NCBI GenBank assembly: GCA_000004985.1 | Contig: GG738879.1 | Direction: 5' to 3' (one strand) | Source: Naegleria gruberi | Lineage: Eukaryota | Length of the DNA stretch: 64,000 nt | Notes under the pieces: model-generated | Databases searched by the model: none | What the model was told of the DNA's origin: nothing | The model's input: the letters and a program-made list of their open reading frames with translations, nothing else | Made by a program: the position numbers and the translations under genes | Shown: piece by piece, positions 1,327-54,727 of the stretch | Numbering within the stretch: position 1 is the first letter of the stretch | Layout of the letters: every line of letters begins with the position of its first letter

Positions 1327-1596
1327 GTTATTTAAAGTTTTGTTTGAATATTTAAATATAATTATTATAAATTAATATGAAATATTATCAATGTTCTCTT
1401 CTGATAGGGTGGGATGCAAATTGGTATGCTGCGTTTCTTTTTTATGATGTCAAGAGTTGGTTCATGTTCACAGGTTTCTTTTCAGCATTGAAGAAAGGTA
1501 AAGAGTGGAATTGAGCCATGATTTTTTCCCGCCAAAATTAAACTATTAAACATTTAAAAAAAATATTTGACAATTTATTGTGAATAATTAAAAATA

Positions 1597-3497: not shown

Positions 3498-4010
3498 CTA
3501 TTAAATGTGTGGGATTTAAATAGTGATGAGGATAATATCTTAAATATTCCGCTGATTATCAGGATGCACATCAAGTATGATACCTGACTTTAGCTATTCT
3601 GTGAGCTATTCTTGGACAAGGATATTGTGTAAATGGAGAAGGAGAAACTCTTTGTCGCCAATTTGTTGGATACAGATGTAATTTTTTTGCTTTTGATTTT
3701 TTCATGGCTGTTTATGTTTGAGTGTCTTTACGAAATGGAAACCACAAGCCATACGACCTTACGTCGTAAGGATCAAAAATTCTCAATCGCCACTAATGGT
3801 TCGCTACTAATCTCAATGTATCTCGTAATTTTCACAATGATGTAAAAGGTGTCCTCACAATGGATTCCGCAATAAAGCAACTGGGACAACTCATATTTGT
3901 GATTGATGCACGAAATGAAAGATCTAAACAAAGGCTATTTCCATCATTGATTCAAATTAGGTATTGATCTACAGTATTATTGAAATTTTGTAAAATAAAT
4001 AGTTTAGAGT

Positions 4011-30570: not shown

Positions 30571-30571
30571 A

Positions 30572-31270: not shown

Positions 31271-31525
31271 TTTTTTTAATGATTTGTTTTTGACTTCTGC
31301 CTATTGAAATTGTTTATTATTTTGGAGGTTATTCTTAATTGGTACTTTTGGAGTGAAAGAGACAAATTGAATTAATTTGTAAATAATAAATCTAAGGAAA
31401 ATTCTATAATTGGAAAATCGTTTAAAGTCAAGCGAATGGACAATATGATTTTCATCTCAATACCTTAATTCTTGTAAATAAAATTAAATACAAAGAAAAT
31501 ATAAATATTAAATAATTAAAAAAAA

Positions 31526-32325
31526 ATGAAAAATACATCACTGTTGGTTTTATTAGTTTGTTTGGTGCTTGCTGTCTTTTTAATTTCGGAGAGTACACCA
31601 CAAAAAACCACACCACATCACCATCACCATCAACAACAACAACAAATAATGATGACGTAACTAGTGTGCGAACGAATGTATTAGGACAAGTCGTTGATAT
31701 TCCAAAACATTTGAGAAAGGATGAACAACACGATCCGATTAAAGTGCTTGTTTTGAGACAAGATAGGCCTGGACAAGAAGAAATTTATTATGTACGAGCT
31801 GATGGAACATTTTCTATTGAAGGTTTGACTGTCGGATCACATATTGTACAATTAGCTTGTAATAGATTTGAATTTGCTAAAGTTCGTATTGATGTATCAA
31901 AGAGTGGAAAGATGAGAGCTATTGCTATGGTTCCATCTAGTCATCCTTCACTTTATTCATCTGAGGAAGAAAGAAAAGCTGCTGTTGCTTCTGTGGACGG
32001 ATTCGGATTTGTTAAACAAAATATTCCTGTCGAACCAATTCTCAAAATTAGACCATTGAATGCTTTGAATTACTTTGAAGTTGTTCCTCCAATGGATTAT
32101 CTTGGACTCTTGAAGAATCCTATGGTTATCATGTTAGTTGTTGGTGTTCTTGTTTCTGTTGTTTTCCCTAAACTTGTTGACCCAGAAGCTATGAAGGAAG
32201 CACAAAAATCAATGTCACAAGGTGAAGGAAGCTTCCGTGATTTAATGAATAATTTGAATGGTGCTGCAGAAACTACAGCTGCAAATGCTATAACTGGTCA
32301 AAAGAAGAAACCAAAGAAGGATTAA
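31526..32325 (+). CDS. EMC7: ER membrane protein complex subunit 7 (EMC7)-like. The signal-peptide exon is in a different frame from the body: either join(31526..31592, 31685..32325) with a 92-nt intron, or a 1-nt indel in the A-run at 31601..31609.
   Basis: The body matches EMC7 (..VRIDVSKSGKMRAIAMV.. against human VRVDITSKGKMRARYV; LKNPMVIMLVVGVLVSVVFPKLVDPEAMKEAQKSM against [38 protein letters not shown]). The only upstream ATG (31526, aaaaaaaATGaaa) encodes a textbook signal peptide, MKNTSLLVLLVCLVLAVFLISES, in the +1 frame. The track ORF starts at a TTG and has no ATG. Confidence 0.6.
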
Positions 32326-32406
32326 ATTTTATTTATTTTGAATTTACCTTATTTAATGCTTTTTCATATTTGACATCATTATTATTTTCAATTTATTTGT
32401 TATTTA

Positions 32407-34218
32407 TTAAACTTCAATATCTGAAATGACTGAATGTAAACTTTCACTGCTGTGTGATCTTTCCATGGAACAAGTTTCAGCACTTTCAAGACTTGAAATG
32501 CTATCCACAGATTTTGATCCAATAGAACTACCAAACGACAACTTGTTTGAAGGGAAATCAGTTGCTGAGAGTTCCATATCATCGTGAGTATACTCTGTAT
32601 AGTTTTGTACTGGAGAGGACATGCTATCTTGCAATTTGAGAGCTTGTAACTTGGTTTCAGAGTTACCTTCTTCAATCAAGAATTGAGCCTTATTCATACT
32701 CTTTTCACCAACAATCTTTCTCCATCTCAAATAGAAGAAAGCAGGAATGTTGATACCAACAACTGCACAACCATAGGCAACAAAAGCACCTGCCAAAAGA
32801 TTCCATGAGAACATAGTTGGACAAGCAATCATTGAATACAAGCTTACAGAGCATGAGCCCAACATCATTGGACCAACAGATTCAACAGCCAATGTTTCGT
32901 CTTCATTACCAATCCACAATGTAAATAATGTGGTCATGTAAATAGTTGGGAAAGAGGCAAATAAACCAGCAAGGAGAGTAAGTTGCATAGCATTGAGGAG
33001 AACACTGATGGAAACCAAACAGAATGGCAAGCCAATTCTCAAAGCAAAGATAATGAGACGAGACTTTTTGAATTTCTTCTTTTCTGGACTTGTTGGAGTG
33101 TTGCTATTAGTATTACTCGATTGATTGAGAGGTTTGTACACCTTATAGGTCCAAGAAACCTTGACAGCCAATACAAGTGTAGCAACAAAACACAAAACAC
33201 TAATGGCAATGTGGATTTCATCTCTCCATTGAATGAGACTAATGGCTGTCATATAGGTGCTTGCCATCACTGTCCAAATGCTCACACCCAACAAACATAC
33301 CAATAAACCACTCATAACTTTGATGAGGGTGTCGCTACCCAAAGCTTGTAATGCCTTGATTTGGAAAGTTGGTTCATCATCTGCTGAATTACTATTTTCA
33401 ATTTGAATAACAGTAGTTGGGGATGATTCATTTGGTGATTCGTCCTTTTCAGAGAGGATAATTACATTGGTCAGGTCTTCTTGTTGCAAAGATTCCTCTT
33501 CATTAGTGGAAGAAGCAGTTGGAGTTGGTGGCACCTCAGTGGATTCTTTCAATTTCTCACCTTCTTGGTCATTGTTCTTGTTGACGACTTCAATGGTAGT
33601 AGAAGGTTGAGATGAATTAACATCCAAGTCTTCAATCTTTGAATTGGATGTCTTTGCTTTGGACTTTAATTGCTCAATCTTTGAGGAAATGAATCTTCTC
33701 CAACGTTTCACAACAAGTTGATCAATGTGTGGAGGAAGCACCTTCCAACACAATAAAAAGATGGCAGTCATAAAGGTACCAATTGGAATAGTAAAGAACC
33801 CTCTGGTCATGACATGTTGTCTAGTGGTACTGTCTTGTCCAAACTTGAAGAGAGCATCCAATGCAAAACCCAAAGTTGATGGAACTATCAATTCAATGAA
33901 TATACAATATATATTTCATTACTTACCAACAGCAGTTGGAATAGAGGAGATGACACCACCAACTCTTGAACCTGCACGTTCAATAATGAGAGTAATGGTG
34001 AATGAAATTAAAGAGGCACACAAGCCCATAAAGATTACATTAAAATACAAGGAAGAAATGACTGGATAAACCATTGCCAAAAGACCTTCCTGATCCAAGT
34101 TTGAATCAATAACAGTAGAGTTTGAAGTACCATTTGTTGGATTGAGAGTGGTTGTTTCATTCAATAGCACTTGAAGCATTTGCACATTAAGGTATTGGAA
34201 GAAAACTTGACTGGTCAT
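32407..34218 (-). CDS. Multi-pass membrane protein (about 590 aa) with a serine-rich cytosolic loop. Two exons: join(34218..33927, 33884..32407) with a 42-nt intron at 33885..33926.
   Basis: Track ORFs 33919..34218 and 32407..33891 join through a GTAAGT donor and GATAG acceptor, phase 1, giving ...SSIPTAVG-V-PSTLGFALDALFKFGQD.... About 10 hydrophobic helices. The family was not recognised. Confidence 0.6.
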
Positions 34219-36374: not shown

Positions 36375-39300
36375 TTACTTTCTCTTTTTACCAAAGGAAA
36401 TTTGTAAATCATTTTCTGCAGCTAACATTCGAGGTGTTTGATGTTTGTTATCCTTCACATCAGGATTAGCTCCATTTTGAAGTAAATATCTACAAATCTT
36501 TTCAGCTGCTGGTTTGTCTTTGACCTTACAGGCTAAATGAAGTGGTGTTTCACCCTTTTCATTTACAACATTCACAACTTCCTTAGTTAATAATGTTAAG
36601 AATAAATTGACAGTTTTGATGTTACCCTTACTGACAGCCAAGTGAAGAGGAGAATTACCTGAAGCATCTTGTTCTTGCATCATTGTTGCACATGATGTAG
36701 GATTCAAGAATGCAATTCTATTCACAAGAGCATCCAATCCTTGTAAAGCAGCTTGATGTAGAACATTTTGCTTTCTTTCATCTCTTGACATTGGTCCAAA
36801 GACAACGTTTGGTTTAGAGTTAGTGATGATGTATTCCACAATGGCAATGTGTCCCTTAGTGGCAGCTCTCATTAATGGAGTTTTTCCAAATTTGTCCTTC
36901 GAGTTCAGTAAAACTTTGTTTCCACTTTGAGTTGATGAAGCAAATGCTGTACCAACACTTTCAGAAATGTTAATATCATTTGATTCACTCACTAAAAACT
37001 TGACAGCTTCCATTCTACCTTGATCACAAGCCATATGTAAAACAGTCGATCCTTCTGAGGTTTTGAAATTGTAATCTCCTTCAAACATGTTGCACATCAT
37101 TTGGGCAGCTTTGAAGCATTTTGTGGCACTTTCCATTTCGAAATGTTCTTCATCATAGAATGCCTTTGCAAAGAGAAGATGAATTGGTGCCTTGCCATAC
37201 TTGTCTCTAATGTTAATTTTACCTCCCAATTGACACAATACAAGAATCGAATCAATGGCTCTGTGAGAAGTTGCCCAGTGAAGTGGAGTTGATTCCAATT
37301 CATCTTCAGCATCAATAGAACATTGATACTTGGTCACCAATAGGAAAATAAGAGATGACCGATTTTTCTTGGCACTTTGATGCAAAAGGTAACATTTTGG
37401 TTTTTCAAAATCTCTCATTTTAGGAATATCATGTTCTGAAAAGTTGGCAAATTCTTTCAATTCTTCATTCTTTGACTCATCGGCTTCCTTACAGAATGCC
37501 AAGTATCCAATTATGAAATTCTCAAAATATTCAGCACATTTTTGATCATCCAAATTGTGATTATTGATAAATTGTTCTAAAACAAATGAATAGAGTTGCT
37601 TTGGTTTCACTTCTCCAAAATTTGTGAGAGGAATGTATTCAACAACAGTCACAATACTTTCCTCATCGTCTCCAACCTCATATTCTGGAGCAATGGTTGT
37701 GTTATATTCTTGTGAGCCTGGAGAGAGAGCTCCTGTTGGGCTTGTTACTGTTGCTCTCAAATTATCAATACTTCCTAGAATATTAACAGTCGATACTTGT
37801 AAACTAGAGGATGTATCTTCAGAAGATTCAAAACTATAGGCAGAATCATTGGAAAGTAGTGAAGATATATTTCCATTAATAATATCCTCAGTAGTTCTTT
37901 TGAACTCTTCATTATTAAAGTTCAAGGTTGGCACAAGATTTCTTGGTGTCGATGAGAGTGTTGGTGGTGGAATTGGTTCTTCCTCTTCAGGAGATTTTTC
38001 TTTTTCGTCAAGGAGAGTAGAAAGTGGATTCGTATAAGGAGTGTTAGCTGAGTGGTGTTTGTTGATTAATCTTTTCAATTTTTCATTAGTAGAATTACTC
38101 AATGTTGGAGTATCGGATGGTGATGTTGTCGCAATGACTGGAGTCAAATCATATTCTCTTTTACCAAAATCGAATACAGACTTTCTCTTATCCTTCTTTT
38201 CGTCTGTAAAGGATCGAGAGAGTCTATTCTCTGAATTTCCATTTTTGAGCCAGTTAGCAATCTTACCAGAGACGCTATACTTTCTCTGAGATAGACTTAT
38301 ACTTTCCTCATTCTGAATAAATTGTTGAATTTTTGATGAGACAATTTTTTCATTGACCAATCTTTGAATTTGTTCGTCATCTGCTGCTCGAGGTGTCTTT
38401 GGAGTTTGATCTTTGAGCATACTTGCTTCAGTGGAAGATCGTTTTTCAAAGAGTTTTCTCTTGTGAGCTACATCCAACAAAGCAGGATCACCTTCATTAC
38501 TTGGAGAAGTTATTGACTGAGTTGCCTTTGAAGGTTCTGATTTTGAAGAAGTACTCTTCTTTCTTCTTGGTGTTAACATTGAAATCAATTTTTTGATATT
38601 TCCTTTAGTTTTCCTTGTTGTTTGCAGAGCTGGTTCATCTGAATTTTCGTTTGGTGTTGGAGGTGTATATGGTGATGTATTATTGTTTACATTGTAATTT
38701 TCAGTCAAACCTTGTTTTTGAATAATCATTTCATTTCCTGATGATTGAATTGAGAGAGGAGATGTCACCCTCTTATGAGTTTGTATTGTTAAATTCTCGG
38801 AGAATGGAGATGGTGGACTCGTTGTTGTTCCTCTTCCACTATCTACGATGAGATGTGAGAGTGGAGGAGAAAATCTTGAAGAATCTCCATTCATTATTGT
38901 GGTAATCATTGGATTTTCCAAAACTCCAACACTACTCAGAGTACTACTACTCATTGGCGAAACAATTGAATTTCCACTACTTGATGATTGTAGAAACTGA
39001 TTGAAGCTAATGACACTATTTACAGAACTGGTCATACTTGAATTGCTACTGCTTGGAGCATGGTGTGGCGAGAGATGATTAACTAAATGGTTATTATTAT
39101 TCGAATCAGAAATGCTTTCTCTGAAATAATTCTCTGGAGTTGTTGTTGTATTATACAGTGAAGGAGAAGATTTCGAAGAATGAATCAATGAAGAATGATT
39201 ACTAGCTGATGAAGGTAAAGCTGCAAAACTATGACTGGCTACATCAATATTGTTATTCGAAACTTGTGTAGAATAGTTTTGCACAGCCGAATCTCCATAC

Positions 39301-39951
39301 TGTTGTTGGAAAGATTTTAAACGGTCGGCTGAAGGTTGCTGTTTAGATTCCCTCTTAAAGGCGCTCTTCAATTTTGACCAACGACTTTTAGATGAATTAT
39401 TCAATTCTCCAGGTGAATTCATTGATAGTCCATTATTATTCATTGCAGATAACTCTTGTTCATTAAATATCATGGTGGGTGAAAGGGAAGATGCCAATGA
39501 AAGTCTCTGTGATGCTCTTCTAGGTGAAAGTAAATTATTATTTACACTCTGATTGAGTAGGAGAAGAGATGGTGAGGGAAATTGTGTTGTAGGAGAGGAT
39601 GGTGAAAATGGTTTCTCTTGTTCTCGTTCTCGTTGCTGATGATGGATGAGGATGTGGATGATGAATATTATTATTATGATGTTGAATATTAGGCTGATTT
39701 TGATGATTTATAAAGATTGGAGAATCATCATCTAATTGACTTGTTGTTGCTCTCCTATCGTCCTCTGCAAATTTAAAGAATAATGATGATGAGGCAGGTT
39801 GTTGTTGATTATTGTTTTTGGATAATGCAAATTCAGGTGATGAATTTTGCACGAGAGATGATGTACTTGTTGAACAGGTGAAATTTCCAACTGTGTTGGC
39901 AGTAGCAACTGTTGTATGGTTGTTATTTGTTGTTTTTGCCTGTTGTTTCAT
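36375..39951 (-). CDS. Ankyrin-repeat protein (about 1,190 aa) with a long S/N/T/Q/H-rich N-terminal region. There is an apparent -1 frameshift near 39560..39625 between track ORFs 39538..39951 and 36375..39497.
   Basis: The C-terminal third has at least 8 ankyrin repeats (..TPLHWATSHRAIDSILVLCQLGGKINIRDKYGKAPIHLL.., ..SPLHLAVSKGNIKTVNLFL.., ..TPLHLACKVKDKPAAEKICRYLLQNGANPDVKD..). The frame of the 1040-aa ORF stays open upstream through ...QEKPFSPSSPTTQFPSPSLLLLNQSVNNN.... That overlaps the end of the 137-aa ORF. The 137-aa ORF carries the only well-contexted ATG (aaagATGaaa at 39951). Confidence 0.55.
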
Positions 39952-40551
39952 CTTTCAATTGTTAGTGTTTCTTCAATATGATGTCGCGGTCACAATTATT
40001 CGAAGAGGAAAGTAACTGCAGAGATAAAAAATCGAGCTGAACCAAGTTTGGCAACAACTGCCGAGACACAATTTTAAAATTGATTGTTGTGTTGGGGGTT
40101 GGATTACCTCTCTCTCTTGATAATTTCCTTGGTAACAGTTTATTAACAAATGTTTTTTGATTCACCACCGCTCAAAGGAGTATCAATTGATTTTTTATCT
40201 ACTTTGCTCATCATATTGAAAAGTGATACTGTGTGCACCTTGTTTTCATGACTCGTAATTACGGCAACCATAGAACAACTTTGGAACCTTGATCTATCTA
40301 TACTCTAACCAGTCAATGTCATCAATCCTTACTTTTTAAGAGGTTTCAATACAAGCCACGAATTCGCTATCTAGAGAATAAATGATGACAAGTACATTAT
40401 TAACATCTTATTGACAACACATTAAGGTTATTCTTGTGAATGTTTCAAATGTTTCAGTTGGTGGAATGGCTCAAATTATTTTCGGACGAATACGATTCCA
40501 ATACCACCTTACAAAAGAAACACGTGTAATTGGTTTTAGAAACAAAAAAAA

Positions 40552-41211
40552 ATGAGCAACCAACAACGTGCACCAGTCTACTCCTTGAATGCTAGAGGAA
40601 AAATGTTTACTGATGATGCCTATTATGAAAAACCTGTTTCCTACAGTAATAGTGAGGAGGTTAGAAGAAATTTGAGTTATACTCGTAGAGTGAATACAAG
40701 TGTTGGTAGTAGCAGTAGAGATTCTTCGGAAGATGATCGGAAACAAAGAAGGAACAAGCAACAGAAGAAAAAACCTTCTTCTATTTTCTGCTGTTTGTTA
40801 TGCCTTCCATTTAAATGTATTTATCAGGGCTTGAGAGCAACTGCTAAATTGGCTTGTTATTCCTTTATTGCTGGTATTGCACTTGTATTAATTTTCCAAA
40901 TATTGGTTTACTTTTCACTCTTTTCTACTGCTTCAAACAAATATTTTGGAGGAGAAACAAACAGTGAGAACACTCCTCACACTCTTTTTGATAGAACTGC
41001 TCATGTAATTGGAACTGCTTTAGGAGCAACGTACTTCTCTGCAGAATCTGGTTATGCTGCTGCTAAATGGACAATGAATACTGCATCATATTGGCTTGGA
41101 ATCATGTTGGATTTTATTGAATATTGGAGAGGGAATAGACCTTCTTTATTTACAAAATATAATGAACAATCTAAGGGAACTCAGGAAAACTATCATGACC
41201 ACAGATATTAG
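40552..41211 (+). CDS. Hypothetical membrane protein of 219 aa.
   Basis: ATG context caaaaaaaaaATGagc. A basic N-terminal region, a Cys-rich juxtamembrane segment (FCCLLCLPFKC) and two hydrophobic helices. Confidence 0.45.
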   Translation: MSNQQRAPVYSLNARGKMFTDDAYYEKPVSYSNSEEVRRNLSYTRRVNTSVGSSSRDSSEDDRKQRRNKQQKKKPSSIFCCLLCLPFKCIYQGLRATAKLACYSFIAGIALVLIFQILVYFSLFSTASNKYFGGETNSENTPHTLFDRTAHVIGTALGATYFSAESGYAAAKWTMNTASYWLGIMLDFIEYWRGNRPSLFTKYNEQSKGTQENYHDHRY

Positions 41212-41364
41212 AATGTTATATTTAGAATATATTTTTTATGATTATTTACCAAATTTGATGAATTGATTTAATTACGAAAAATACTATTAGTAATTTGTGT
41301 TATCTAACTCATGGAAATTTTACAAATATATTCTATTGTTGAATCATTGTTATGTACTATTTAA

Positions 41365-43455
41365 ATGACTTTTTTATGGATAACCAATTTTCACAACAAA
41401 ATGACTAGACAACAAATGCTAAACTCGAGTAAGCTTTCAAAGCTTGCTATATTATTATATTTGATTGTGACTATTGTGTTTGCCAACCTTGTACACAGTG
41501 ATGATAAATCTGAATTGAACATGGCTTACACTGTAGATCAGACGAATTACATTCCAACCTCAGTCTCGTATTCTAATTCTGCTAATAACAATGGTGCTTT
41601 AACCAAATCAAGCACAACCACTTACTATTCCTCTTCAACGTCTGGCTATCCATATGGAGGCGGGGCAGTTCCTATTGGTGCAGCACCAGTTGCACAACCT
41701 ATTTTACAACCTCAACAAGTGATTGTTAATCCACAACCAATTCCACAACCTATTCCTCAAACATATGCTCAACCAATTCCTCAACCATACCCACAACCTA
41801 TTCCACAAGGTGTTCCTATAGCAGGAGGGGCAGTTCCACAACCAATTCCTCAACCTATTCCACAAGCTGCTCCGTATGCTCAACCTCTTATTACTCAACA
41901 ACCTATTCCTCAACCTCTTCCATATGCAGGAGGAGGTGTTCCAATTGCAACAGGAGCCCCATATGCTCAACCTCTTCCATATGCAGGAGGTGGTGGTGTA
42001 ATTTATGGAGGTGGAGGTGGTGTTGTAGGTGGAGGTGTTGTTGCTCAACCAATTCCACAACAAGCTCCAATTATTTACTCTGGAGGTTGTAGTGTTTATG
42101 GAGGTGTTGGATGTGGAGGTACTATTCCACAACCTATTCCACAAGCTGTCCCTATTGCTCAACCTTTACCCCAACCTGTTCCTCAACCAATCTTGCAACC
42201 TATTCCACAAACTTATGCCCAACCTATTCCACAACCTCTTCCATATGCAGGAGGAGGCATTGTTTATGGTGGAGGTGGCGTAGTTTACGGAGGTGGAGGT
42301 GGTGTCATTGCTCAACCAATTCCACAACCAGCTCCAATTATTTACTCTGGTGGCTGTGACGTTTATGGAGGCGTTGGATGTGGAGGTGGTGGTGTAGTTT
42401 ATGGAGGTGGAGGTGGCGTAATTTATGGAGGTGGAGGTGGAGGTGGTGTAATTTATGGAGGTGGAGCTGTACCTATTCAACCATTTACAGTTGACACTGT
42501 TGCACCTGTATCCTTAGTGACATATCCTCAAACAGTGGTAGTGAGTCCACCTGTAACAGCAACACCTTGTACCACTGGTAAATGCTCTTCTGTGGATACC
42601 TACGTACCTAATGTTATAGTCCCAGCTTCAGCAGGTGTAGCAACACCTTGTACCACTGGCAAATGTTCTTCTGTGGACACCTACGTACCTAATGTTATTG
42701 TCCCAGCTTCAGCAGGTGTAGTAAGCGTTCCCCTCAAGAGTAATAATGTTGTTGTTGGATCTGGATCTACAACTGCTTCTACTTGTTTATTGACAGTAAG
42801 AGGATTGACCACATTAGCTCTTAGCCCATCCTCATCCATCTGTTCTTCAGTTGTCAATTGTATAATTACTTACATTTCAGATTATGTGCAATATGCTATC
42901 AATGCCCTCAATTACGACAGTAGCACTTCTCTCACTGTGAACTCTCAAGATGAGAATGTAGATTTGTGGAAGGCTTTAGAGAATATTGCTGGAAGTATTA
43001 GCGAAGATGGATATGGACCTGCAACAACTACAGCTTCAGCAACATCAGCTGCTTGCACCAATGATTTGGCTCCTGTTTTTGCCAGAACCTCTAAAGGTGG
43101 AGCAGTATTTGTTAATTCATGCTGGGCAAGAATGGCAAAGGCCTATCCACCATTTGTTCCAGTTACACTCAAACCTGGTTCTGTTTCTAGTGGAGGTCAA
43201 TTTGATTGGCCAGATGATGTTCAAAATCCAAACTATGTTGTTGCCAATTACTATGTATTGAGCGCTTTCAGATTGACAAACTTTGCCTTGTACTACTTTA
43301 GACCTTGTATGAGTGCAAGCACTTACACTGTTCTCTCTAATGCCCTACAATCTTTGAACGACATTTCAGCCTTAATAACTGCTGGCAATGTTACAAGAGC
43401 AAACGCCTTATTGAGTGATTTACAAAAAAGTTTGAGCACATTATCTAGTGCATAA
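41365..43455 (+). CDS. Secreted or cell-surface repeat protein with a signal peptide, PIPQ/Pro-Gln modules, Gly-rich YGGGGGV modules, duplicated Cys-containing units and a Ser/Thr/Ala-rich C-terminal domain.
   Basis: The second Met (41401) starts a canonical signal peptide, MTRQQMLNSSKLSKLAILLYLIVTIVFANLVHS. Internal repeats at the DNA level: a PIPQ...YGGGG...CxVYGGVGCGG module duplicated (about 41700..42130 and 42180..42400), and a tandem duplication of about 75 nt (TPCTTGKCSSVDTYVPNVIVPASAGV, twice) at 42541..42720. Confidence 0.6.
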   Translation: MTFLWITNFHNKMTRQQMLNSSKLSKLAILLYLIVTIVFANLVHSDDKSELNMAYTVDQTNYIPTSVSYSNSANNNGALTKSSTTTYYSSSTSGYPYGGGAVPIGAAPVAQPILQPQQVIVNPQPIPQPIPQTYAQPIPQPYPQPIPQGVPIAGGAVPQPIPQPIPQAAPYAQPLITQQPIPQPLPYAGGGVPIATGAPYAQPLPYAGGGGVIYGGGGGVVGGGVVAQPIPQQAPIIYSGGCSVYGGVGCGGTIPQPIPQAVPIAQPLPQPVPQPILQPIPQTYAQPIPQPLPYAGGGIVYGGGGVVYGGGGGVIAQPIPQPAPIIYSGGCDVYGGVGCGGGGVVYGGGGGVIYGGGGGGGVIYGGGAVPIQPFTVDTVAPVSLVTYPQTVVVSPPVTATPCTTGKCSSVDTYVPNVIVPASAGVATPCTTGKCSSVDTYVPNVIVPASAGVVSVPLKSNNVVVGSGSTTASTCLLTVRGLTTLALSPSSSICSSVVNCIITYISDYVQYAINALNYDSSTSLTVNSQDENVDLWKALENIAGSISEDGYGPATTTASATSAACTNDLAPVFARTSKGGAVFVNSCWARMAKAYPPFVPVTLKPGSVSSGGQFDWPDDVQNPNYVVANYYVLSAFRLTNFALYYFRPCMSASTYTVLSNALQSLNDISALITAGNVTRANALLSDLQKSLSTLSSA
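42541..42720 (+). repeat. Near-perfect tandem duplication (2 x about 75 nt) inside the coding sequence of the secreted repeat protein.
   Basis: ..gcaacaccttgtaccactggtaaatgctcttctgtggatacctacgtacctaatgttatagtcccagcttcagcaggtgta.. is repeated immediately, with a few synonymous or near-synonymous changes. Confidence 0.8.
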
Positions 43456-43768
43456 GAGTGTCATTATATCTATAGAGTAGTTTCTTTATCTTCACCTAAG
43501 AGTAGTGTGATTGAGTATCTTTAAATTTTTGTGAATTGTAAATTCAAATAAAATTCAAACCAAATTTATTTCTTTTAAAAAATTATCATCACACAATGAA
43601 GCCATTTTCTCTCGCAAGAGGATTTAAACTTGGATGAAGTGATATGCTGAAGATAGGAGGTTCGGAACTTCAATCTTCTTATTCACACACTTCTTTATCA
43701 ACAATGAATCACAATGTTGAATCGTCCAGTTTGCTATGGACAGTCCAATAGAAAAATTCAGTAACACT

Positions 43769-46700
43769 TTACTTTTGTTTATGTTTGGACATGAAATGGT
43801 CAAAGCTTTGTCTCGACAATAGATCATGAACAGTGGTGGAGAGTCTAGATGAACGTGGAGAGGCTTCTCCTATTGTATGCTGTGGAGGAATATCAATGTT
43901 GATATGACCTTCTTGTTCTTTTGTTGTGTGTACGGAGGTTGTGGACTTTCTTCGGAAGGCACGATTCACAAAATCTGAAAATTTACTTCTTCTTCCACAG
44001 AGGAATAACTTATCTCCTTCCAAGAGGATGATGGATTGTCTTGGATGAGTATAAACATAATAGAAATCATTGTCAACTGACTCTAGAATGCCATTTACAA
44101 ATATTCTCTTGGGTCTGTAAAGTCCAATCAGAATCTTTTAGAGTGGTTTAGTGTACTTGATATAATTGAAACTTACTGTATTGGATATTTCACAAAGTTC
44201 TAGAAATACATCAATGGCTGCTCTACCAAAACAGTTTGGAGGACAATCTTCTTGAAATATAGAACTCTTGCTCATATTGCAGAGACCATCTAAGCTCATA
44301 TGCTCAATAATTTCATTCAACTTATCAGTGTAGAACGATTGAGCCAAAAGCTTAGGAATGAAACTAATTGGAAATATTCTACCACTTGAGTAAAGCTCAG
44401 ACAATAGACAGAACTGATCATACTCATCACTCTTGTCAGAAAGTGAATGTAATGGATCATCAAAGGCAACAGAGGCACTGCTAACATTACGGAATATTTT
44501 GAAAAGAGAGTGGTTCTCTCCATATTTCTTTGAAAAACATCCTCCTTGTTTTAGAAATTTGATATTCTTTTGGTTATTGAGCTCCATGATGAAGAATTTC
44601 TTGCTGTCTATATAGCTAATTGATTCTATGAGTTTGATAACTTCTGCATCCCTAAGGTATTCAGATGTGTCAATAAGATCGTCTGTGGCTTCATGAGAGT
44701 CACAATCATTTTCTGGTTTAGAATTGTGACCATGAGAGCCATATTGCCTGGATAGATAGACCACTGCTTCTGCATTTAACAAGCCACATCTGTGTAGGTC
44801 AAAAACGTCTGTTGCATTCCCTTTCAGAAAGAATACCTGATCAAAAAACTTGAGCCTGTCATATAGATAATCTACGTATGGATTGCCGTGAAGATTTGTA
44901 TGAGAGACCATAATAAGTATTGGAGTGAAATGTCTCTTTCTAATAGATCTTATTGTAGCTAAGATGACAAGAGGATATTTCAATTCTCCCACAAGTATGA
45001 TATGATTCTTTAACGAGCATGTACTAGAGAGAAGGAAAAAATCATTCTTTGGTCTAGCCTTGATGAGTAGATTGTAGTTTTCTAGAACACTTTGGTAAAA
45101 GTCATTAAGAAAGCGCTTGAAAGATACTCCAGAATCATCTAAATTCTTGTAAAAGAAAGTTGGAGGAGCTACTGACCTAAACAATCTCAATAGATATCCT
45201 TTGTTCATTTCAGTCTCTGAAACATGTGGAACATTTTTGATATCTATGATTTGCTTGTCTATACCTGACATGGTACTGACAAAAGATATGGGATTATCAA
45301 AGTCTGAACTATTGGTCAATATGGAAGGACTTTCAGCTTCTGGTGGAGTTTCAATATTTGAAGAAAAGGAAATATTGGATTGACTTGGACCTAGACTCTC
45401 AATGCATTTTTTGGAACCTCTTTTGGGTGGAAGTCCATGTCTTACTTTCAACACTTTTCTCCGAGTAGGAAGATATTTTGGTCTAGTTTCTACTTTTGGT
45501 TCATCCATTTCTTCGTTGATTGTCTTCTCATACGCGTTCTCCTCACTTACAAAGAATGTTTCAAAGGATTCCATGTCATTATTGTCATTTCGTGCTGGAG
45601 CTTCTTTCAAGTCTATTGGTTGTTGTGGAATATCTTGAGTATCTGCAGAGCTTGTTGAGTGTTTATCTGATTGGCTGTCGTCTTCTGCTTTAGCATTCTC
45701 AAAAAGGTAAACTAGGTTGGCATGAAACGTGCTCTGAGCAATCACGAATGCTTTGCATTTATCCACATGAATTATTTCATCAAAAGGATTCAATGATACA
45801 CTTTTTAGACTTTCATCATGATTATCCAAGTATTCCATGGCCAGTAAGGTGAGATCAAGATTCTCTCTGATGAAAACGACTGCCTTAATGAAGGTCATTC
45901 CTTCAAAAAATGGCGAGAATCTCACACAATATATTTCATTTCCTAGTCCGTCCAGATATTCAAATATCCACAGACTTTCAGCAGAAGTTACAGGATCTAA
46001 CTTCTTTTTAAGGAATGGAATCCAGGGCTTTTTCTTCTCTTGTTCCATAATCATCTTGTGGGTTTCAATGGCATTTCTAACATAGGTTGTCGTGACGAGA
46101 TTGATTAAGAGTGTACTAAATCCATGATATACAACACTCATACCCATAATCTTACTTGAAATAGTTTCTGTGCAAATAACTTGTTTGGCACCTGCTTTAT
46201 ACAAGTATGCTCTTGATTCAGGTAATGTCACTTGTGCATAAATATCCAGATCTGGATTAATATTTTTCAGACCAATAGTTGCCACCATTATTGACGTATC
46301 ATTATGTCTAGGATTAGAATGTTTAATACAATTGAGAAGGAACACAGAGTGAGCTTCATGAACTTTGATAATTCTACTCGTCTCATAATCCATCAAATCT
46401 CCATGGAAAACTAAAACCTTTTCTTGAAGGTATTGTCTCACTTTGATAACTTCCAAAATTGAATCACACAACTTCTTATTTCTGGAAACAACTTTGCAAT
46501 TGAAATTTTGGATGAGTATTGAACATGAAATAAGGTTGTAACTTACTCAAGGATTTTTTCGTATTCTTTCCATGCATTGAATGATAGAATTCTTTTAGAA
46601 AGTCCAATACATCTTGCTTGTGAAAGTATCCACAAACAATGACATGATTTTTCAAATTGGCATGTCGAGCTCTGAAAATTGCCTTTTCGCTTGTCGATAA

Positions 46701-47699
46701 TAACAAAGACAATTGATAGGGAATGAATGTAATTCCAACCAGAAAGCAGCCAATCGTCCAATATTTACTCGCAAAAGTAGTTGGAGAAATATCACCATAT
46801 CCAATGGTAGCCATGGTAATTACCATGAAATAGATTGAATCATCTTTACATAATATATTAAGGATGAAATACGTTTCAAAATACCTACGTAATGAAAGAA
46901 CATGTCCACCAAATAAGAATTCAATCATTTGAAAAGTTCCAGCAAACAAAACCATCAATGTAACAATTAATGCAATAAGACAAGCAATTTGTACTTGTAG
47001 AGTTGGTCCAAATCCAAAACTATTCTCCAAAACATAGTGTAGTATATTCCTCTTCCAAGTCAAGACAAAAACAATCCTCACCAATCGAATTAATCTGAAA
47101 ATTGAAATCATTACTGAAATGTTAAACATGTTCACATAGAGCATAATCTTCTGATCTCTATTCACCACCAACATTCTATCATTTTCCACACCATACGCAT
47201 GAATACAATAGATGATGTAAATACATAATGGAATCATTGGAACTACAGTTATAAAATCCAATATAGAGTTGGGATGAATCAAATAACGGAGTTTATGTTT
47301 GGTGAGGAGAAAGGAAACGAACCACAATGAAACAGTTATGGTACACAGTATCAAATCACAAATGAATATACTCTGCAACATGAATTGAATATGTTGATCC
47401 GAGAGTGAGAAGGAATTTTCAGGAGTTGGTCTTGATTGAGGATAAATTTGCGAATAGAAAACAAAATTTGTGTAAACGTCCGCAATGAAAATAACAAAAA
47501 AGAGAAAGGAAATTATCACCTGAAGAATTTCCATATCCAAAAAGTAACCATTATGTTTCATATAGTTTTTGATTTTGGATCGAAGACTGAGTTTTAGAGG
47601 TTTCGGCACGTTTGATGCATTGAAGAAGAATTCATTGTGATGATTGCCTTCTGTTGTTGGTGTTTTGCTTTGCTGTTGTTGAGTTGTTGGTGTAGTCAT
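43769..47699 (-). CDS. Slo/BK-type voltage- and Ca2+-activated K+ channel (about 1,277 aa). Three exons: join(47699..46547, 46491..44177, 44134..43769); introns of 55 nt (46492..46546) and 42 nt (44135..44176).
   Basis: Exon 1 carries S4-like arginines (RLIRLVRIVFVL), the K+ pore TMATIGYGDISPTT, and the RCK1 start NHVIVCGYF. Exon 2 carries Slo-like RCK gating-ring sequence. Exon 3 encodes the conserved Slo tail (ILIGLYRPKRIFVNGILESVDNDFYYVYTHPRQSIILLEGDKLFLCG; human Slo1 has CFGIYRLRD...[24 protein letters not shown]). Both introns have GTAAGT donors and AAG acceptors and keep the frame. The first ATG of exon 1 is at 47699 (ttaaaATGact). Confidence 0.8.
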
Positions 47700-48016
47700 T
47701 TTAATTCTTTTTATTAACAAATTCCTCAATAAGAAGGTAATCATTTCGATTGAAGAAGAAATAATTTTGCAATTTCGAAATTAGATTTGATTCTGAACTA
47801 AAAGGCTGATGATCTTTTTAACAAGATTCCCAAATGAATCATTCAAAAACTCTCCTAAAAACAATAAAATAGGTTGTATCAGTTTGAGAACTTTCGGATT
47901 ACATTTATTTCCAAATCACAAACAATCACAACATGATTCTCATTGAATGTCACACCATCGTAATCATTGGTAGCATGTTTCTCTCTAATTCACAAAGTAA
48001 CAACCTAAATTAAAAA

Positions 48017-49097
48017 ATGTCGATACATCGTTCTGGATCAAAGCCACTCATTGTTTCAGAGGCGTATGGCAGAAAGTTGACACCAACAACATCAAAAACC
48101 AACAATGAAGATAGTTTATCAGATTCTACTCCATATTTTGATGCTTCGGCAATTAAAGATTTTAATACTAAACCTAATAATAATGGAGGTGGATCAAATA
48201 ATAATAATGGGTCGTGGACTGATACAGTAGCAAGGAGATGGAAGAAATTTTCTAGTTGGACGATCGGAAATAGAAGATTAAAGATGTATATTTATTCAGT
48301 TCTAAAGGTAGGTTGTTGGAAAGGATAAACTAAACTAAATCACACGAAAGTTTGCTACTATTACATACGTTCAAGCAAATGACGTATTGGGCAAAGCTTC
48401 AAACACAAATAATCAAACAGAGAAGGATATGCAAATGGCATTCAAAGTTCTTTCATATCTATACATGGCTATTTTAATTTTACTTTTCACTTTCAGATAT
48501 GTTAGAGAATTGATTGCAATTTCCAGGAAGAAACCTCTTTCAATTTGGGTAAACTGGATTGAATCATCTGTTTTTTTAACCTATATTTGCTATTCGATTG
48601 TTACTTCTGTCATTCACGTTGTTTACATTACAAAACACTACAATGCTGAATATGAAGAAAGATTATTGCATCCAGAGAATTTTGCTTACAAAACAGTTAC
48701 ACTTGAGGAAGAGTTGGCAGTGGAAATTTTGGAAGTTTTTGTTCACTTGTACATCATCTTTGATAAGTCAACGCATTACCTACATGCAGGACACAGTGTT
48801 TCTCTATATTTGGCTAAAGCTCAGCATATTCCAAAGAATGCTCATCCAGGGCATGATCAAAATCAAAACCATTATCATGATGCCTTCGATCATCATGCTC
48901 ATCTTTACACAAATCAATCTGAAACTGATGACGAAGAAAAGAGTGATGAAGTATATGATGATTTTATTGGAAAACCAAAAGAAGCCACAAAACCAACAAC
49001 AAGAAGACACACCGTTATGGCAATGACACCACCAAGACAAAATATTGATTCTGAAATTTTATTGGAAGAGCCAAGATTGGCATTTAATAAGTTTTAA
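48017..49097 (+). CDS. Hypothetical membrane protein with a His-rich acidic tail. Probably two exons: join(48017..48307, 48351..49097) with a 43-nt intron.
   Basis: Track ORFs 48017..48328 and 48387..49097 are in different frames. A GTAGGT donor at 48308 (phase 0) and the first AG after an ACTAAAC branch-like motif (48350) join them in frame. An alternative acceptor at 48374 is also in frame. Two TM helices follow. Confidence 0.5.
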
Positions 49098-50264: not shown

Positions 50265-51686
50265 ATGAAGAAGCTTTCTCAACAAGCCTCTGCATCATCA
50301 CAGAAAGAAAAGTCTCCCACAATCATAAGGGAGGACATTAGCCTAGCTACTAAAAGGAATGTTGAAGCTGATAATGAATTAGACTTTACCTCATCATCTT
50401 CAACTAGTAAGGGGGTTGTGTTTGCACTCTTGAAAGGAACAAAACGAACAATTGATATTAATCAATCTAAGGTTTTTATCGGAAGAGATCCTGTTACTTG
50501 TGAGGTGTGTTTGGCAAATTCACCAACAGTCTCAACAATGCATGCACAATTGGAATTTATTGATGATAATTCAAAAGAAAAGCCTAAAGTTGTTTGTGTC
50601 TTGAGAGATTTAAAATCAAAGAATGGAACACTAGTTAATAACGTTAAAGTGAGTCAAAATTTATCATCGATTATTAGGAATGGAGATTTGATTCAATTCG
50701 GACAAGATGAAGTATTTAGATTCGAGATTGGACCTTTTGTTTCAGAAGTTGTAAACAAAGCACCAATCATTGATGCAGATGAATTTACTTCAATAGACTC
50801 ACCTCTCTCATCAGATTTTGAAATTCAAGAGAAAGTGAAGGAAATAACATCTAAGGAAGAAAATGAAACAGATTTTATTGAAACAGAAGGAGATAAATTG
50901 GAAGACACATTCTTTGAAACAATGGAACCAACAAATAGACTCATTGATAGAGAGGTTTATAAGGATGAAAGTCTGAGAATGCACTTGTACGATGAAATTA
51001 ACGATCTAACCTCTGAACTCTCAACTAAATTAAACCTTCTCAATTCCGTCCTTAGTGAAGACACTCCTTACCATAGAAATCAAGTCCCTTTCGAGTTTTT
51101 AAAGTCCATGCACAACCTTTCTGAAAGTATTTCATTCCTCACCAGAGACACGATATTCGAAAGACAATCAGAAATCAAATTTAGAGAACTAGAACAGTAT
51201 GCAAACTCCTTAGAAAGAAAGCTCGTAAATTACAAAAAACTTGGGAAGGATTCTGAAGTTTCACTTGCTCAATGTAAAAAATTATACACCAAATCTAAGG
51301 ATGAAAGCAATAAGAAGATTCATGACCTTACCACCTCCTTACACGGAAGATTGGATGAAATACAACTTCTTAAAAAAGGACTTTCCAATGAAAAAGATAT
51401 AACCAATTCTTTAAAAACAGAAATTGATAGACTCAAATATAGACTATCAATTGAGGTTACACAAACAGAGAGTCTAAGAAAATCCAACGACATTCTCAGA
51501 CAGCAACTGCTCAAAACACAAGATTACTCCAACTTTTTACACAAGGAAATTTTGAAAATAGAGGACTTTCCACTGAATCTCAAAATTTCCAATCTAGTTT
51601 CTAATGAAACAAAACAATCACCAAACCTTAATCAAACGATCAATGCAACTTCAATAATTGAGCAATATAAAAACATGGATCTATAA
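50265..51686 (+). CDS. FHA-domain protein with a long C-terminal coiled coil.
   Basis: FHA signature ..VFIGRDPVTCEVCLANSPTVSTMHAQLEF...LRDLKSKNGTLVNNVKV...IIRNGDLIQFG. An acidic linker follows, then a heptad-rich C-terminal half. ATG context aggacATGaag. Confidence 0.7.
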   Translation: MKKLSQQASASSQKEKSPTIIREDISLATKRNVEADNELDFTSSSSTSKGVVFALLKGTKRTIDINQSKVFIGRDPVTCEVCLANSPTVSTMHAQLEFIDDNSKEKPKVVCVLRDLKSKNGTLVNNVKVSQNLSSIIRNGDLIQFGQDEVFRFEIGPFVSEVVNKAPIIDADEFTSIDSPLSSDFEIQEKVKEITSKEENETDFIETEGDKLEDTFFETMEPTNRLIDREVYKDESLRMHLYDEINDLTSELSTKLNLLNSVLSEDTPYHRNQVPFEFLKSMHNLSESISFLTRDTIFERQSEIKFRELEQYANSLERKLVNYKKLGKDSEVSLAQCKKLYTKSKDESNKKIHDLTTSLHGRLDEIQLLKKGLSNEKDITNSLKTEIDRLKYRLSIEVTQTESLRKSNDILRQQLLKTQDYSNFLHKEILKIEDFPLNLKISNLVSNETKQSPNLNQTINATSIIEQYKNMDL

Positions 51687-52870: not shown

Positions 52871-54727
52871 TTAGTAGAAAGCACTTTGAGGTCGTGGATT
52901 AGGAATAATTTCTTTTGATTCAAAATACGTAACCATTTGTTTGGGTATTTCAGCTAGCACTTCAGAAGCTAATTGTGTTAAATCAGAACATTCAGAAAAG
53001 CTCACAAATTGAACAATGTCTCTTGTCATTTTAGTTCCATTACTGTGAATGAGTGGTTCATCATCAGCATCGAATTTTCTACAACTTGGGAAACTTCTAC
53101 CACCAATACCAACAATTACAATTGAGATAGGTTTGTCATTGGCCTCTATAATTGAATCGATTGTGCCTTGCATGTCAAATGCATCCCCATCAATAATTAA
53201 CAATAGAATATTGTAGAATTGTTGTTGTTGAGTAACAGGAGGAGTTCTCTCAACGACATGTTCAATAACTCTATAAAAGTCATCTCCTCGATAAGGCTTT
53301 CCAGTTTTTGGATTAGTGGCACTTCCCATATCTCCAAATGATAGTCTTGGAACTGCCTTCTCATATGCTTCAAGTATTTCTCCTACACAAAGTTCCTCCT
53401 TATCTGAGAGTGACAGATTAAACATTGGATTCATTTTTAATTCCTTATCTATCCTTGCACCATATCCATATGCTTTCGAATAATTAGTGAAAGTGTTAAA
53501 AGTCAAATACTTACCACCATATATCTTGTCAGAATCATAAGGTTCCAAAATTTGCAAAACTTGTGCAAGGGCTTGTTGATAGTGATTCTTCTTGGAACTT
53601 AAATAATGGAGGGAGCTACTACTGGTGAAACCACCGTTTGATGCAGTAAAATCAATGCCAACTGATACTGAAATGTTACATCCTCCCATAATGTGGTCTA
53701 AAAATTGATCTTGGCGGTTTTCCTTCCTGGCAACAAAGGATTGGTAGATTTGATATTCTGGATTTGGTACTGGAACATGTTCTATCTGAATAGTACATAT
53801 TTCAAACTCAAACACTCCAGAGTTTTTGTAATTCTTCTTTTTTTTTTGAAGGGATGGCTCAATTAAATGGAATTGTTTTACATTATTATTCAGAACTTGG
53901 TCCAAATTATATTTAAATTCTCCAATTAAATCATCCTTCGAGTACTTGTCCTTGTCATAGCATGTCACAAATATATCCTTGTTGTAATCATTGTTGAATT
54001 CATCTAAATTGAGTTTAAAGGATGTCCAAGAAGGGTTCAGATTCTTATAGATAACTTCACTTGTGTAGAGTTTGACTCTTCTTCCAGCAACTTCCTTTTC
54101 AAAGAAAAAGTAACAATCTGACTTTCCAAAGAAATCCTTCTTATCTAATCCAATACCTTTACATTTGAATAGAACTACTTTCATATCTGAATTAACAGTA
54201 GTTGGTATCTCAGAACGTAGAGCATTCAATTCAGCCGAGCTCATACCAGAAAATTTCAAAGTGGCATTCCTTTCAGAATCAGCATTATTAGTGTTATTCG
54301 AATCCGATTGCCTAACAACCTTCTCAACATGAACAAAGACCTCACCTTGTACTTTCCCACTCTTCAAAACAAGATCTAACTTTAATTTACCATCCCTCGA
54401 GCAAACAGCTTGTGATAATGAAAACTCTCTAGTTTTGCCAATAAGCTCACTCTTATTTCCACCATCGTCATCATAGATTTCAATATAAAATTTCTGTACG
54501 CACTCAAAATAATAATGAACACTAAACTTGGTCTTGAACACTGGATTATGATTATTCTGAATTGTTTCGGTATTGCCCAGAAACGTGAATTTATCAACAC
54601 CACCCGATGATGAACTTGTGTTACTTTCGTACAGTTTAGCAAACGGATCAGACTTGGACATCAAGTCCATTCTAGCCAAATTGCAACATGATAAATAAAT
54701 ATCAACAGATTCTCTGGCGGAATTCAT
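52871..54727 (-). CDS. Copine: two N-terminal C2 domains plus a C-terminal vWA (copine A) domain. Intronless.
   Basis: C2A begins VDIYLSCCNLARMDLMSKSDPFAKLY. C2B has ..VLFKCKGIGLDKKDFFGKSDCYFFF... The vWA region carries the copine-specific VGIDFTASNG motif and ..PTNFE.. surrounding sequence. Confidence 0.85.
   Translation of the reverse strand: MNSARESVDIYLSCCNLARMDLMSKSDPFAKLYESNTSSSSGGVDKFTFLGNTETIQNNHNPVFKTKFSVHYYFECVQKFYIEIYDDDGGNKSELIGKTREFSLSQAVCSRDGKLKLDLVLKSGKVQGEVFVHVEKVVRQSDSNNTNNADSERNATLKFSGMSSAELNALRSEIPTTVNSDMKVVLFKCKGIGLDKKDFFGKSDCYFFFEKEVAGRRVKLYTSEVIYKNLNPSWTSFKLNLDEFNNDYNKDIFVTCYDKDKYSKDDLIGEFKYNLDQVLNNNVKQFHLIEPSLQKKKKNYKNSGVFEFEICTIQIEHVPVPNPEYQIYQSFVARKENRQDQFLDHIMGGCNISVSVGIDFTASNGGFTSSSSLHYLSSKKNHYQQALAQVLQILEPYDSDKIYGGKYLTFNTFTNYSKAYGYGARIDKELKMNPMFNLSLSDKEELCVGEILEAYEKAVPRLSFGDMGSATNPKTGKPYRGDDFYRVIEHVVERTPPVTQQQQFYNILLLIIDGDAFDMQGTIDSIIEANDKPISIVIVGIGGRSFPSCRKFDADDEPLIHSNGTKMTRDIVQFVSFSECSDLTQLASEVLAEIPKQMVTYFESKEIIPNPRPQSAFY

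Follow-up and report, generated by a model that had tools for sequence, protein, structure and literature searches.

Slo channels and related RCK-gated channels

Slo1/BK channels possess an extra N-terminal helix, S0, which brings the number of transmembrane segments to seven and places the N-terminus outside the cell. Slo2 channels are not known to have regularly spaced arginines in S4, and in the archaeal channel MthK the gating ring is completed by soluble copies of the RCK domain. The length of the turret loop varies among K+ channels. KCa1-like channels of protozoa were surveyed by Prole and Marrion in 2012; the survey did not cover Naegleria, and noted that the ligand specificity of RCK domains cannot be predicted from sequence (PMC3283738). 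Our literature searches for a BK, Slo or Ca-activated K+ channel of Naegleria found nothing relevant. TcCAKC of Trypanosoma cruzi was considered as a close comparator and rejected, since its authors liken it to calmodulin-type channels of intermediate or small conductance, which have no calcium bowls.

The window analyzed here is a stretch of 64,000 nucleotides from Naegleria gruberi NEG-M. Within it, the region 43769..47699 on the minus strand (the strand of all features described below) is most probably one gene of four exons and three spliceosomal introns, NAEGRDRAFT_69603, encoding a 1262-residue K+ channel subunit of the Slo family; we estimate the probability of this reading at about 85%. 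The predicted protein has in common with animal Slo1/BK channels (KCNMA1; structures 5tj6, 7pxe and 6v22) the GYGD pore, a charged S4, the HV(I/V)VCG start of RCK1, the BK_channel_a domain, the tandem RCK1-RCK2 arrangement and the C-terminal (G)LYR...F(L/V) strands. However, it differs from them in having no S0 helix, no calcium bowl and no equivalents of D367 and E374, and its RCK1-RCK2 linker is much longer; identity is only about 24-30% and is limited to the pore and RCK1. With animal Slo2.2/KCNT1, a Na+-activated channel (5u70, 8hir), it shares six transmembrane segments without S0, a tandem RCK ring and the lack of a calcium bowl, but its S4 is regularly charged, unlike that of Slo2. MthK (1lnq) embodies the same principle of a pore joined to an RCK gating ring; the direct match is weak (about 1e-8), and each MthK subunit has two transmembrane segments and a single RCK domain and lacks a voltage sensor. 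As described, the protozoan KCa1-like channels are similar in their charged TMD4, their RCK-type C-terminal tails and the unpredictability of their ligand (PMC3283738).

Gene model

The region was originally presented as three open reading frames, 46476..47744, 44138..46471 and 43769..44023, all of which were located on the minus strand. The original prediction joined them into one gene, and when the 55- and 42-nt segments between them are taken out, a single open frame does run from the methionine codon at 47699 to a TAA at 43771..43769. The complete coding region (43769..47699; 1262 codons plus TAA) corresponds to XP_002675273.1, and its spliced translation is identical over the full length to XP_002675273.1, EFC42529.1 and UniProt D2VKZ2 of N. 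gruberi NEG-M. Recomputing the exon map from the EFC42529.1 protein gave the same four exons as XP_002675273.1. The start codon at 47699 is likewise that of the reference model; a second ATG in the same frame is located 15 codons further upstream, at 47744, so the choice of start is ambiguous.

Exon 1 (46889..47699) encodes the N-terminus and S1-S5 and ends in phase 1 after ...FGGHVLSL. The pore helix, the TIGYGD filter, S6 and the start of RCK1 (HVIVCG) are in exon 2 (46547..46843). Exon 3 (44177..46491) contains the remainder of RCK1, BK_channel_a, the low-complexity linker and most of RCK2, and exon 4 (43769..44134) supplies the end of RCK2 (ILIGLYRPKR...FLCGRR), the C-terminal tail and the TAA stop.

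The gene is already catalogued, with an identical model in GenBank, RefSeq and UniProt. The possibility that it was unannotated had been suggested by a word-indexed homologue search that listed no N. gruberi protein; it was discarded, as the reference protein sat in a 90% cluster whose representative is P0001, a metagenome fragment of 742 residues. In the XP_002675273.1 / D2VKZ2 entries, the only name given is "predicted protein". What the present analysis adds to the XP_002675273.1 record is solely a functional label, and the discovery value is small: both RefSeq and UniProt carry the model, automatic searches detect its Pfam domains, and a Naegleria paralogue has already been labelled "BK channel". 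Five exact matches to N. gruberi proteins were also found among the ORFs neighboring the channel gene in the window. The suggestion that a BK/Slo gene could serve as a lineage marker adds little, as exact protein matches identify Naegleria gruberi directly.

Introns

Three introns are predicted, one more than in the original prediction, which had overlooked a 45-nt intron (intron 1; 46844..46888, GTAGGT...GTAAAG, phase 1) that is present in the reference model and in the orthologues. Because this intron preserves the frame and contains no stop codon, it breaks no ORF and cannot be seen in an ORF track. As a consequence of the oversight, the 1277-residue product proposed earlier carried 15 spurious residues directly before the pore helix. 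Removal of the intron is required to obtain the exact annotated protein and produces a gapless match (FGGHVLSLHDSIYF vs FGTAVLGMLDSIYF). Intron 2 (46492..46546; 55 nt, GTAAGT...GCAAAG, phase 1) and intron 3 (44135..44176; 42 nt, GTAAGT...CTAAAAG, phase 0) are the two described before, and both of their junctions proved exact, with GTAAGT donors starting at 46546 and 44176 and AAG acceptors ending at 46492 and 44135. The in-frame TAA that terminates the middle ORF lies, as had been proposed, inside the 42-nt intron, at 44140..44138. When solved BK structures and the Naegleria orthologues were aligned, the protein was gapless across the intron 2 junction (KKSL/IVSRNK vs KKAL/IVSRNK; a slash marks the junction) and across that of intron 3 (ISNT/ILIGLYRPK vs KASL/ILLALYRPK). 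GT...AG boundaries are found at all three introns, and the reading frame is restored once they are removed, as expected of spliceosomal (U2-type) introns. All three sites recur, with their phases, in the orthologue models of N. fowleri and N. lovaniensis (GM/LDSIYF, phase 1; KKAL/IVSRNK, phase 1; L/ILLALYRPK, phase 0). Splicing at these sites is predicted from comparative evidence and from gene models, which in turn are predicted.

At 52-105 nt, the introns of the two orthologues are longer than those of the N. gruberi channel gene, and their acceptors are CAG or TAG. The AAAG acceptor in all four introns of the channel gene and a neighboring gene had prompted the idea of a general N. gruberi signature. 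This was dropped, because a heuristic scan of the window picked out five other likely short introns (42-56 nt) in which the nearest candidate acceptor is TAG or CAG. The N. lovaniensis orthologue has a fourth intron (at FFDK/VFIM) that is absent in N. gruberi; the corresponding site was inspected and rejected as an intron, the local GTATTC...AAAG segment being only 16 nt long and the ORF uninterrupted.

A 98%-identical metagenome strain (L001) provided a further comparison; its contig covers introns 2 and 3 and stops short of intron 1. The introns differ at 8 of 97 nt (8.2%), while the exons show 63 events in 2881 nt (2.2%; Fisher p = 0.0019). Intron 2 contributes 4 substitutions in its 55 nt; intron 3 has 3 substitutions and a 1-nt deletion, with the flanking exons on either side conserved. 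In exon 3, the only indels measure 6 and 3 nt, and third codon positions take a disproportionate share of the substitutions. The exon dN/dS is 0.19 (955 codons), and the exons are under purifying selection.

These observations bear on two other accounts of the locus. The first ORF could be read through, with 46888..46844 retained in a two-intron mRNA, always or as a regulated isoform, and 15 extra residues in the turret between S5 and the pore. Since the length of the segment is divisible by three and no stop codon occurs in it, retention would keep the frame, and K+-channel turret loops do differ in length. An AT-rich segment of 45 nt with these properties would nevertheless be expected by chance about once in ten (our estimate) and so is weak evidence for coding. 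Its GTAGGT donor and AAAG acceptor resemble those of the other introns of the gene and its neighbor, both orthologues have an intron at the exact site and in the same phase, the reference model splices it out, and its removal yields a gapless alignment within the most conserved part of the protein. We therefore regard routine or regulated retention as quite improbable, though the 45-nt intron, if retained, could give rise to a turret-insert isoform. Far less probable still, to the point of being negligible, is that the three ORFs are separate genes or a pseudogene whose frame was lost through a stop codon and a frameshift. A prokaryote-style ORF track does show three entries, and a metagenome gene caller likewise split the gene of a relative at its introns (P0001). 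But the ORFs are collinear, over both breaks, with single orthologues of 1338-1339 residues; canonical GT...AG sequences at conserved intron sites bound both breaks; and the dN/dS of 0.19, together with the conservation of exon 4 despite the 1-nt length change in intron 3 of the metagenome strain, argues against decay. A single gene with three introns is the reading used below. The locus illustrates that ORF tracks are blind to in-frame introns without stop codons, here in the pore region.

Domain organization of the predicted protein

The putative channel has the order S1-S4 with a charged S4, S5-pore(TIGYGD)-S6, RCK1, BK_channel_a, a long disordered linker and RCK2. Hydropathy analysis gave six hydrophobic segments, corresponding to S1-S6, ahead of the gating ring. 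The voltage-sensor-like domain S1-S4 (47049..47549, residues 51-217) was delimited by these segments and by alignment, and a profile of the channel matches the Shaker Kv channel across S1-S6 (E about 5e-10). The S4 arginines R202, R205 and R208 are invariant in all 6 aligned homologues and are followed by K216/R217; also invariant in the 6-sequence alignment are the acidic residues D115 (S2) and D148 (S3) and the GYGD filter. The K+ selectivity filter, TMATIGYGD, occupies residues 280-288. The pore domain (Pfam Ion_trans_2; 46698..46964, residues 246-319, 2.4e-11) spans intron 1.

The original prediction had listed the motifs FRLIRLVR (S4), TMATIGYGD, HVIVCG and LYRPKR...FLCG, every one of which was found, and a domain search of the spliced protein with HMMs, as it had proposed, matched Ion_trans_2, BK_channel_a and, twice, Slo-like_RCK. 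The first Slo-like_RCK match is the RCK1 N-lobe (46238..46655, residues 334-454; 65.8 bits, 3.6e-18), which spans intron 2. BK_channel_a (PF03493; 45836..46186, residues 472-588) scores 66.5 bits against a cut-off of 26.8 (2.8e-18), and the RCK2 N-lobe (44705..45013, residues about 863-965) scores 29.2 bits against a cut-off of 24. By Pfam, then, two tandem RCK domains follow S6 on one polypeptide. The linker between them (45200..45694, residues about 636-800) is of low complexity, poorly conserved and gapped in alignments, with pLDDT below 30; it is coding nonetheless, the indels in the metagenome strain being of 6 and 3 nt. An AlphaFold2 model of the gating ring (876 residues, 6-row alignment) was poor (mean pLDDT 43), and in a Foldseek search with it Slo1, Slo2.2 and Slo3 ranked at the top with TM-scores of only about 0.19. 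Given such a model, the putative tandem-RCK fold is based on the Pfam matches and on the local similarity from Foldseek, the latter lending weak support. With six transmembrane segments, a charged S4, TIGYGD, two RCK domains and BK_channel_a, the predicted protein is placed in the Slo family by the Pfam thresholds for BK_channel_a and Slo-like_RCK.

Calcium-binding sites and the BK designation

The original prediction called the channel a Slo/BK-type, calcium-activated one. Assignment to the Slo family agrees with the Pfam results; the remainder of the description is unsupported, because S0, the poly-Asp calcium bowl and the D367 site are all missing. By hydropathy, residues 1-50 contain no hydrophobic segment that could be S0, the first such segment starting at residue 51. 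Where BK channels have the calcium bowl (DQDDDDDPD), there is no run of Asp between the anchors NIKFLKQ and ELYSSGRIF, and the three Naegleria sequences concur. The loop found there (44381..44566, residues 1012-1073) consists of about 45 mostly non-acidic residues, and conservation within it among the Naegleria sequences is limited to D1058 and E1059. In RCK1, a gapless local alignment of the sequences places M360 and S368 at the positions of human D367 (Ca2+) and E374 (Mg2+). The stretch aligned with D367 is HSMHGKNTKK, basic rather than acidic (HSMHGKNTKKSL), and the E374 position is Ser/Ala.

A true BK/Slo1-type channel, whose pore is opened by depolarization and by intracellular Ca2+ binding to the gating ring, would account for several features. 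Slo1 channels are the top matches in the PDB, the charged S4 resembles that of Slo1, BK_channel_a is present, UniRef labels a Naegleria paralogue "BK channel", and a partly acidic SDKSDEYD immediately precedes the ELYSSGRIF anchor. Against this, S0 is absent, the mostly non-acidic loop has replaced the bowl, both RCK1 positions are altered as described, and among the closest solved relatives Slo2.2 (2.1e-24) scores nearly as well as the Slo1 channels of Drosophila and Aplysia (4.7e-30), with MthK and Shaker weaker; moreover, RCK sequences do not disclose their ligand (PMC3283738). We consider the BK identity unlikely, although Ca2+ could act through non-canonical sites. As neither of the high-affinity Ca2+ sites of BK is conserved and S0 is missing, the most fitting description of the protein is a Slo-like K+ channel of heteroloboseans, gated by RCK domains and probably modulated by voltage, rather than an orthologue of animal BK/Slo1. 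Domain names should not be taken to justify the label "calcium-activated BK" for a protein that lacks S0 and the Ca2+-binding residues.

By analogy with the Slo and MthK families, four subunits of this Slo-like channel would form the K+-selective pore and their eight RCK domains a cytoplasmic gating ring; binding of a ligand would make the ring pull on S6, and the Kv-like S4 would add voltage dependence.

Heterolobosean relatives

The nearest relatives are all heteroloboseans: Willaertia, Naegleria paralogues and Percolomonas. One N. fowleri paralogue bears the UniProt name "BK channel", and a search with the 6-sequence profile revealed no useful further homologues. The orthologues of N. fowleri (FDP41_009970) and N. 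lovaniensis (C9374_010176), as well as Willaertia magna KAL9641723.1, are 43-46% identical to the N. gruberi protein over 98-99% of its length. In the two Naegleria orthologues the order of domains is the same; conservation between the N. gruberi channel and the orthologues does not extend to the linker or to either terminus. The heterolobosean proteins appear to combine a Kv-like charged S4 and a tandem-RCK ring without S0 or either of the BK Ca2+ sites. We suggest tentatively, with the odds somewhat against it, that the Slo-like channels of Naegleria, Willaertia and Percolomonas form a distinct branch gated by voltage and a ligand. The latter may be H+, Na+, Mg2+ or a metabolite instead of Ca2+, or it may be Ca2+ bound to the enlarged bowl loop at a new site. 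As a general prospect only, a characterization of the N. fowleri orthologue would be the first study of a Slo-like channel from Heterolobosea and might provide a lead for a drug target.

The genes for PIG-S and EMC7 adjoin the orthologues in N. fowleri and N. lovaniensis; in N. gruberi they map to 29.4-34.1 kb of the window. Relative to its neighbors, the N. gruberi channel gene is inverted compared with the orthologue loci.

A single channel gene with three introns

Three minus-strand entries of the ORF list, at 46476..47744 (422 aa), 44138..46471 (the middle ORF, 777 aa) and 43769..44023 (84 aa), had been predicted to form one channel gene interrupted by introns of 55 and 42 nt. The coordinates of these joins proved exact. 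On the minus strand, GTAAGT donors start at 46546 and 44176 and AAG acceptors end at 46492 and 44135, and excision of both segments leaves a single open frame that begins at the ATG at 47699, or alternatively at an in-frame ATG at 47744, and closes with the TAA at 43771..43769. The TAA that terminates the middle ORF was located within the 42-nt segment, as predicted, and the motifs FRLIRLVR, TMATIGYGD, HVIVCG and LYRPKR...FLCG were each found in the spliced translation.

The ORF track was thus read correctly as far as it allows, but an in-frame intron was missed. The two-intron product carries 15 surplus residues (RRYFETYFILNILCK) directly ahead of the pore helix. The DNA of this additional intron (intron 1, 46888..46844, minus strand, GTAGGT...GTAAAG) is 45 nt long, in frame and without a stop codon; its excision yields FGGHVLSLHDSIYF, which aligns gaplessly to FGTAVLGMLDSIYF, and is needed for an exact match to the reference protein. 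The three-intron product from M47699 is 1262 aa and identical over its full length to EFC42529.1 / XP_002675273.1 / D2VKZ2. Exons mapped from this protein lie at 47699..46889, 46843..46547, 46491..44177 and 44134..43769, all on the minus strand. The gene is therefore an existing reference annotation (locus NAEGRDRAFT_69603, named "predicted protein"), and the kind of channel was already known. The reference protein was absent from the first homolog table because a 742-aa metagenome fragment, P0001, represents its 90% cluster. The in-frame ATG at 47744, 15 codons 5' to the annotated start at 47699 (minus strand), would add MITFLLRNLLIKRIK; ortholog N-termini are not conserved and therefore give no choice between the two.

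Conservation of the introns

The closest full-length homologs are those of N. lovaniensis (1339 aa, 44% identity) and N. fowleri (1338 aa, 43%), which cover 98-99% of the query and cross both predicted junctions gaplessly (KKAL-IVSRNK and KASL/KAGL-ILLALYRPK). When their exon maps were rebuilt from the genomic loci, N. fowleri had three introns and N. lovaniensis four; three in each coincide exactly with the window sites and are of equal phase (1, 1, 0). The fourth N. lovaniensis intron (76 nt, phase 0, between FFDK and VFIM in RCK2; 9102..9177 of locus L003) had no counterpart in N. fowleri or N. gruberi in the exon-map comparison, and is a lineage-specific gain or loss. The orthologous introns in these two species are 52-105 nt long and end in CAG or TAG, whereas the N. 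gruberi channel introns end in AAAG.

A 7-kb ENA metagenome contig (ERZ929261 k127_536208, here L001), the source of P0001, is 98% identical to window 46746..39800 (minus strand) and belongs to a closely related Naegleria strain. Its eukaryotic genes had been called as prokaryote-style ORFs, severed at introns. In the shared part of the gene, the exons differ by two indels, of 6 and 3 nt, and by 61 substitutions, of which 43 fall on the third base of a codon; dN/dS is 0.19 (955 codons). The 55-nt intron has 4 substitutions and the 42-nt intron 3 plus a 1-nt deletion, so that divergence per site is 8.2% in introns (2 and 3 only) versus 2.2% in exons (Fisher p = 0.0019), with no change in splice-site bases. 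The 1-nt deletion alters the relative frame of the flanking ORFs, yet the last exon is conserved; the 42-nt segment therefore fits an intron, and this combination is at odds with both a coding role for the segment and a decaying pseudogene at the locus. At the sequence level, the strain comparison independently supports splicing of introns 2 and 3. L001 stops short of intron 1, for which support comes from the conserved ortholog intron, the alignment and the reference model.

Domain content and calcium sites

HMM searches of the spliced protein, suggested with the original prediction, gave Pfam matches to Ion_trans_2 (residues 246-319), Slo-like_RCK twice (334-454 and ~863-965, the second scoring 29.2 bits where the cut-off is 24) and BK_channel_a (472-588, 2.8e-18). 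Among solved structures, Drosophila and Aplysia Slo1 ranked highest (1.5e-24 when the sequence was searched alone, 4.7e-30 when a Naegleria profile was used), followed by Slo2.2 (2.1e-24) and, further down, human Slo1, MthK and Shaker. AlphaFold2 modeled the cytoplasmic part poorly (mean pLDDT 43); Foldseek placed Slo1, Slo2.2 and Slo3 on top, but with such a model and a TM-score of ~0.19 this ranking lends weak support to the tandem-RCK fold. Residues R202, R205 and R208 of S4, D115 of S2, D148 of S3 and the GYGD filter are invariant in Naegleria and remoter homologs. Hydropathy indicates six membrane segments; none lies within residues 1-50, and the protein thus lacks S0.

In BK the calcium bowl lies between NVQFLDQ and ELY..QPFACGTAF, whereas the corresponding N. 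gruberi anchors are NIKFLKQ and ELYSSGRIF. Alignment to BK revealed no aspartate run in the ~45-residue loop between them, where D1058 and E1059 are the only residues conserved among Naegleria sequences. At the well-aligned RCK1 start, BK D367 and E374 are replaced by M360 and S368, inside the basic stretch HSMHGKNTKKSL. Because of these differences, calcium activation, although possible, lacks sequence support, and with S0 also absent the label "BK-type calcium-activated" over-named the function. A survey of protozoan KCa1-like channels concluded that sequence does not reveal RCK ligand specificity (PMC3283738). From the solved Slo and MthK channels we infer, by analogy, that four subunits would form a K+-selective pore, controlled by a Kv-like voltage sensor and a ligand-responsive cytoplasmic ring of eight RCK domains.

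An exhaustive HMMER scan of 1.84 billion representatives with the 777-aa middle ORF found just 8 at E <= 1e-30, rising to 40 when the threshold was E <= 1e-10. The named best matches are all heterolobosean: Willaertia magna, an N. fowleri paralog (UniRef name "BK channel"), the N. gruberi paralog NAEGRDRAFT_62424 and several Percolomonas transcripts. A literature search found no publication on a Naegleria Slo channel.

Gene neighborhood

Five further ORFs in the window (G+C 34.8%) are exact N. gruberi NEG-M proteins (EFC42447, EFC42449, EFC42451, EFC42452 and EFC42523) of one 384,281-nt scaffold. PIG-S and EMC7, which lie beside the orthologs in N. fowleri and N. lovaniensis, sit at 29.4-34.1 kb, and window 28753..34084, with these and flanking genes, is collinear with positions 1..5230 of both loci. 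The shared PIG-S/EMC7 block supports orthology with local rearrangement, since the N. gruberi channel gene is inverted and ~10 kb away. Three extra genes intervene, at 36375..39497 (ankyrin-repeat protein), 40552..41211 and 41365..43455. The last (plus strand; EFC42449.1, 696 aa) is mostly QPIPQP and GGGGV(V/I)YGGG repeats, contains TPCTTGKCSSVDTYVPNVIVPASAG units in duplicate, and has no Pfam domain match.

Beyond the channel lie genes for an FHA-domain protein (50265..51686), a copine (C2 and Copine domains; 52871..54727), alpha-tubulin (EFC42452; 55124..56485, plus strand) and a WASP-like WH1 and PBD protein (57574..58935). The identical tubulin protein has two further N. gruberi accessions, EFC44259 and EFC47345, and was found on 3 contigs; in N. 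fowleri and N. lovaniensis, tubulin copies share contigs with the Slo orthologs. Adjacent uninterrupted minus-strand ORFs at 14193..20327 and 20427..26171 encode 2044 and 1914 aa, the 1914-aa product being exactly EFC42523.1.

The divergently oriented neighbor of the channel, EFC42450.1 (48017..49097, plus strand, 345 aa, no Pfam domain match), has a 43-nt intron at 48308..48350 (GTAGGT...CGAAAG), so that all four introns, three in the channel and this one, use AAAG acceptors. A heuristic scan picked out five further probable short introns of 42-56 nt, with GTAAGT donors at 63005, 60789, 60283, 33926 and 4633 (minus strand), whose nearest candidate acceptors are TAG or CAG. Tiny introns are thus the norm in the window, and AAAG is no universal acceptor.
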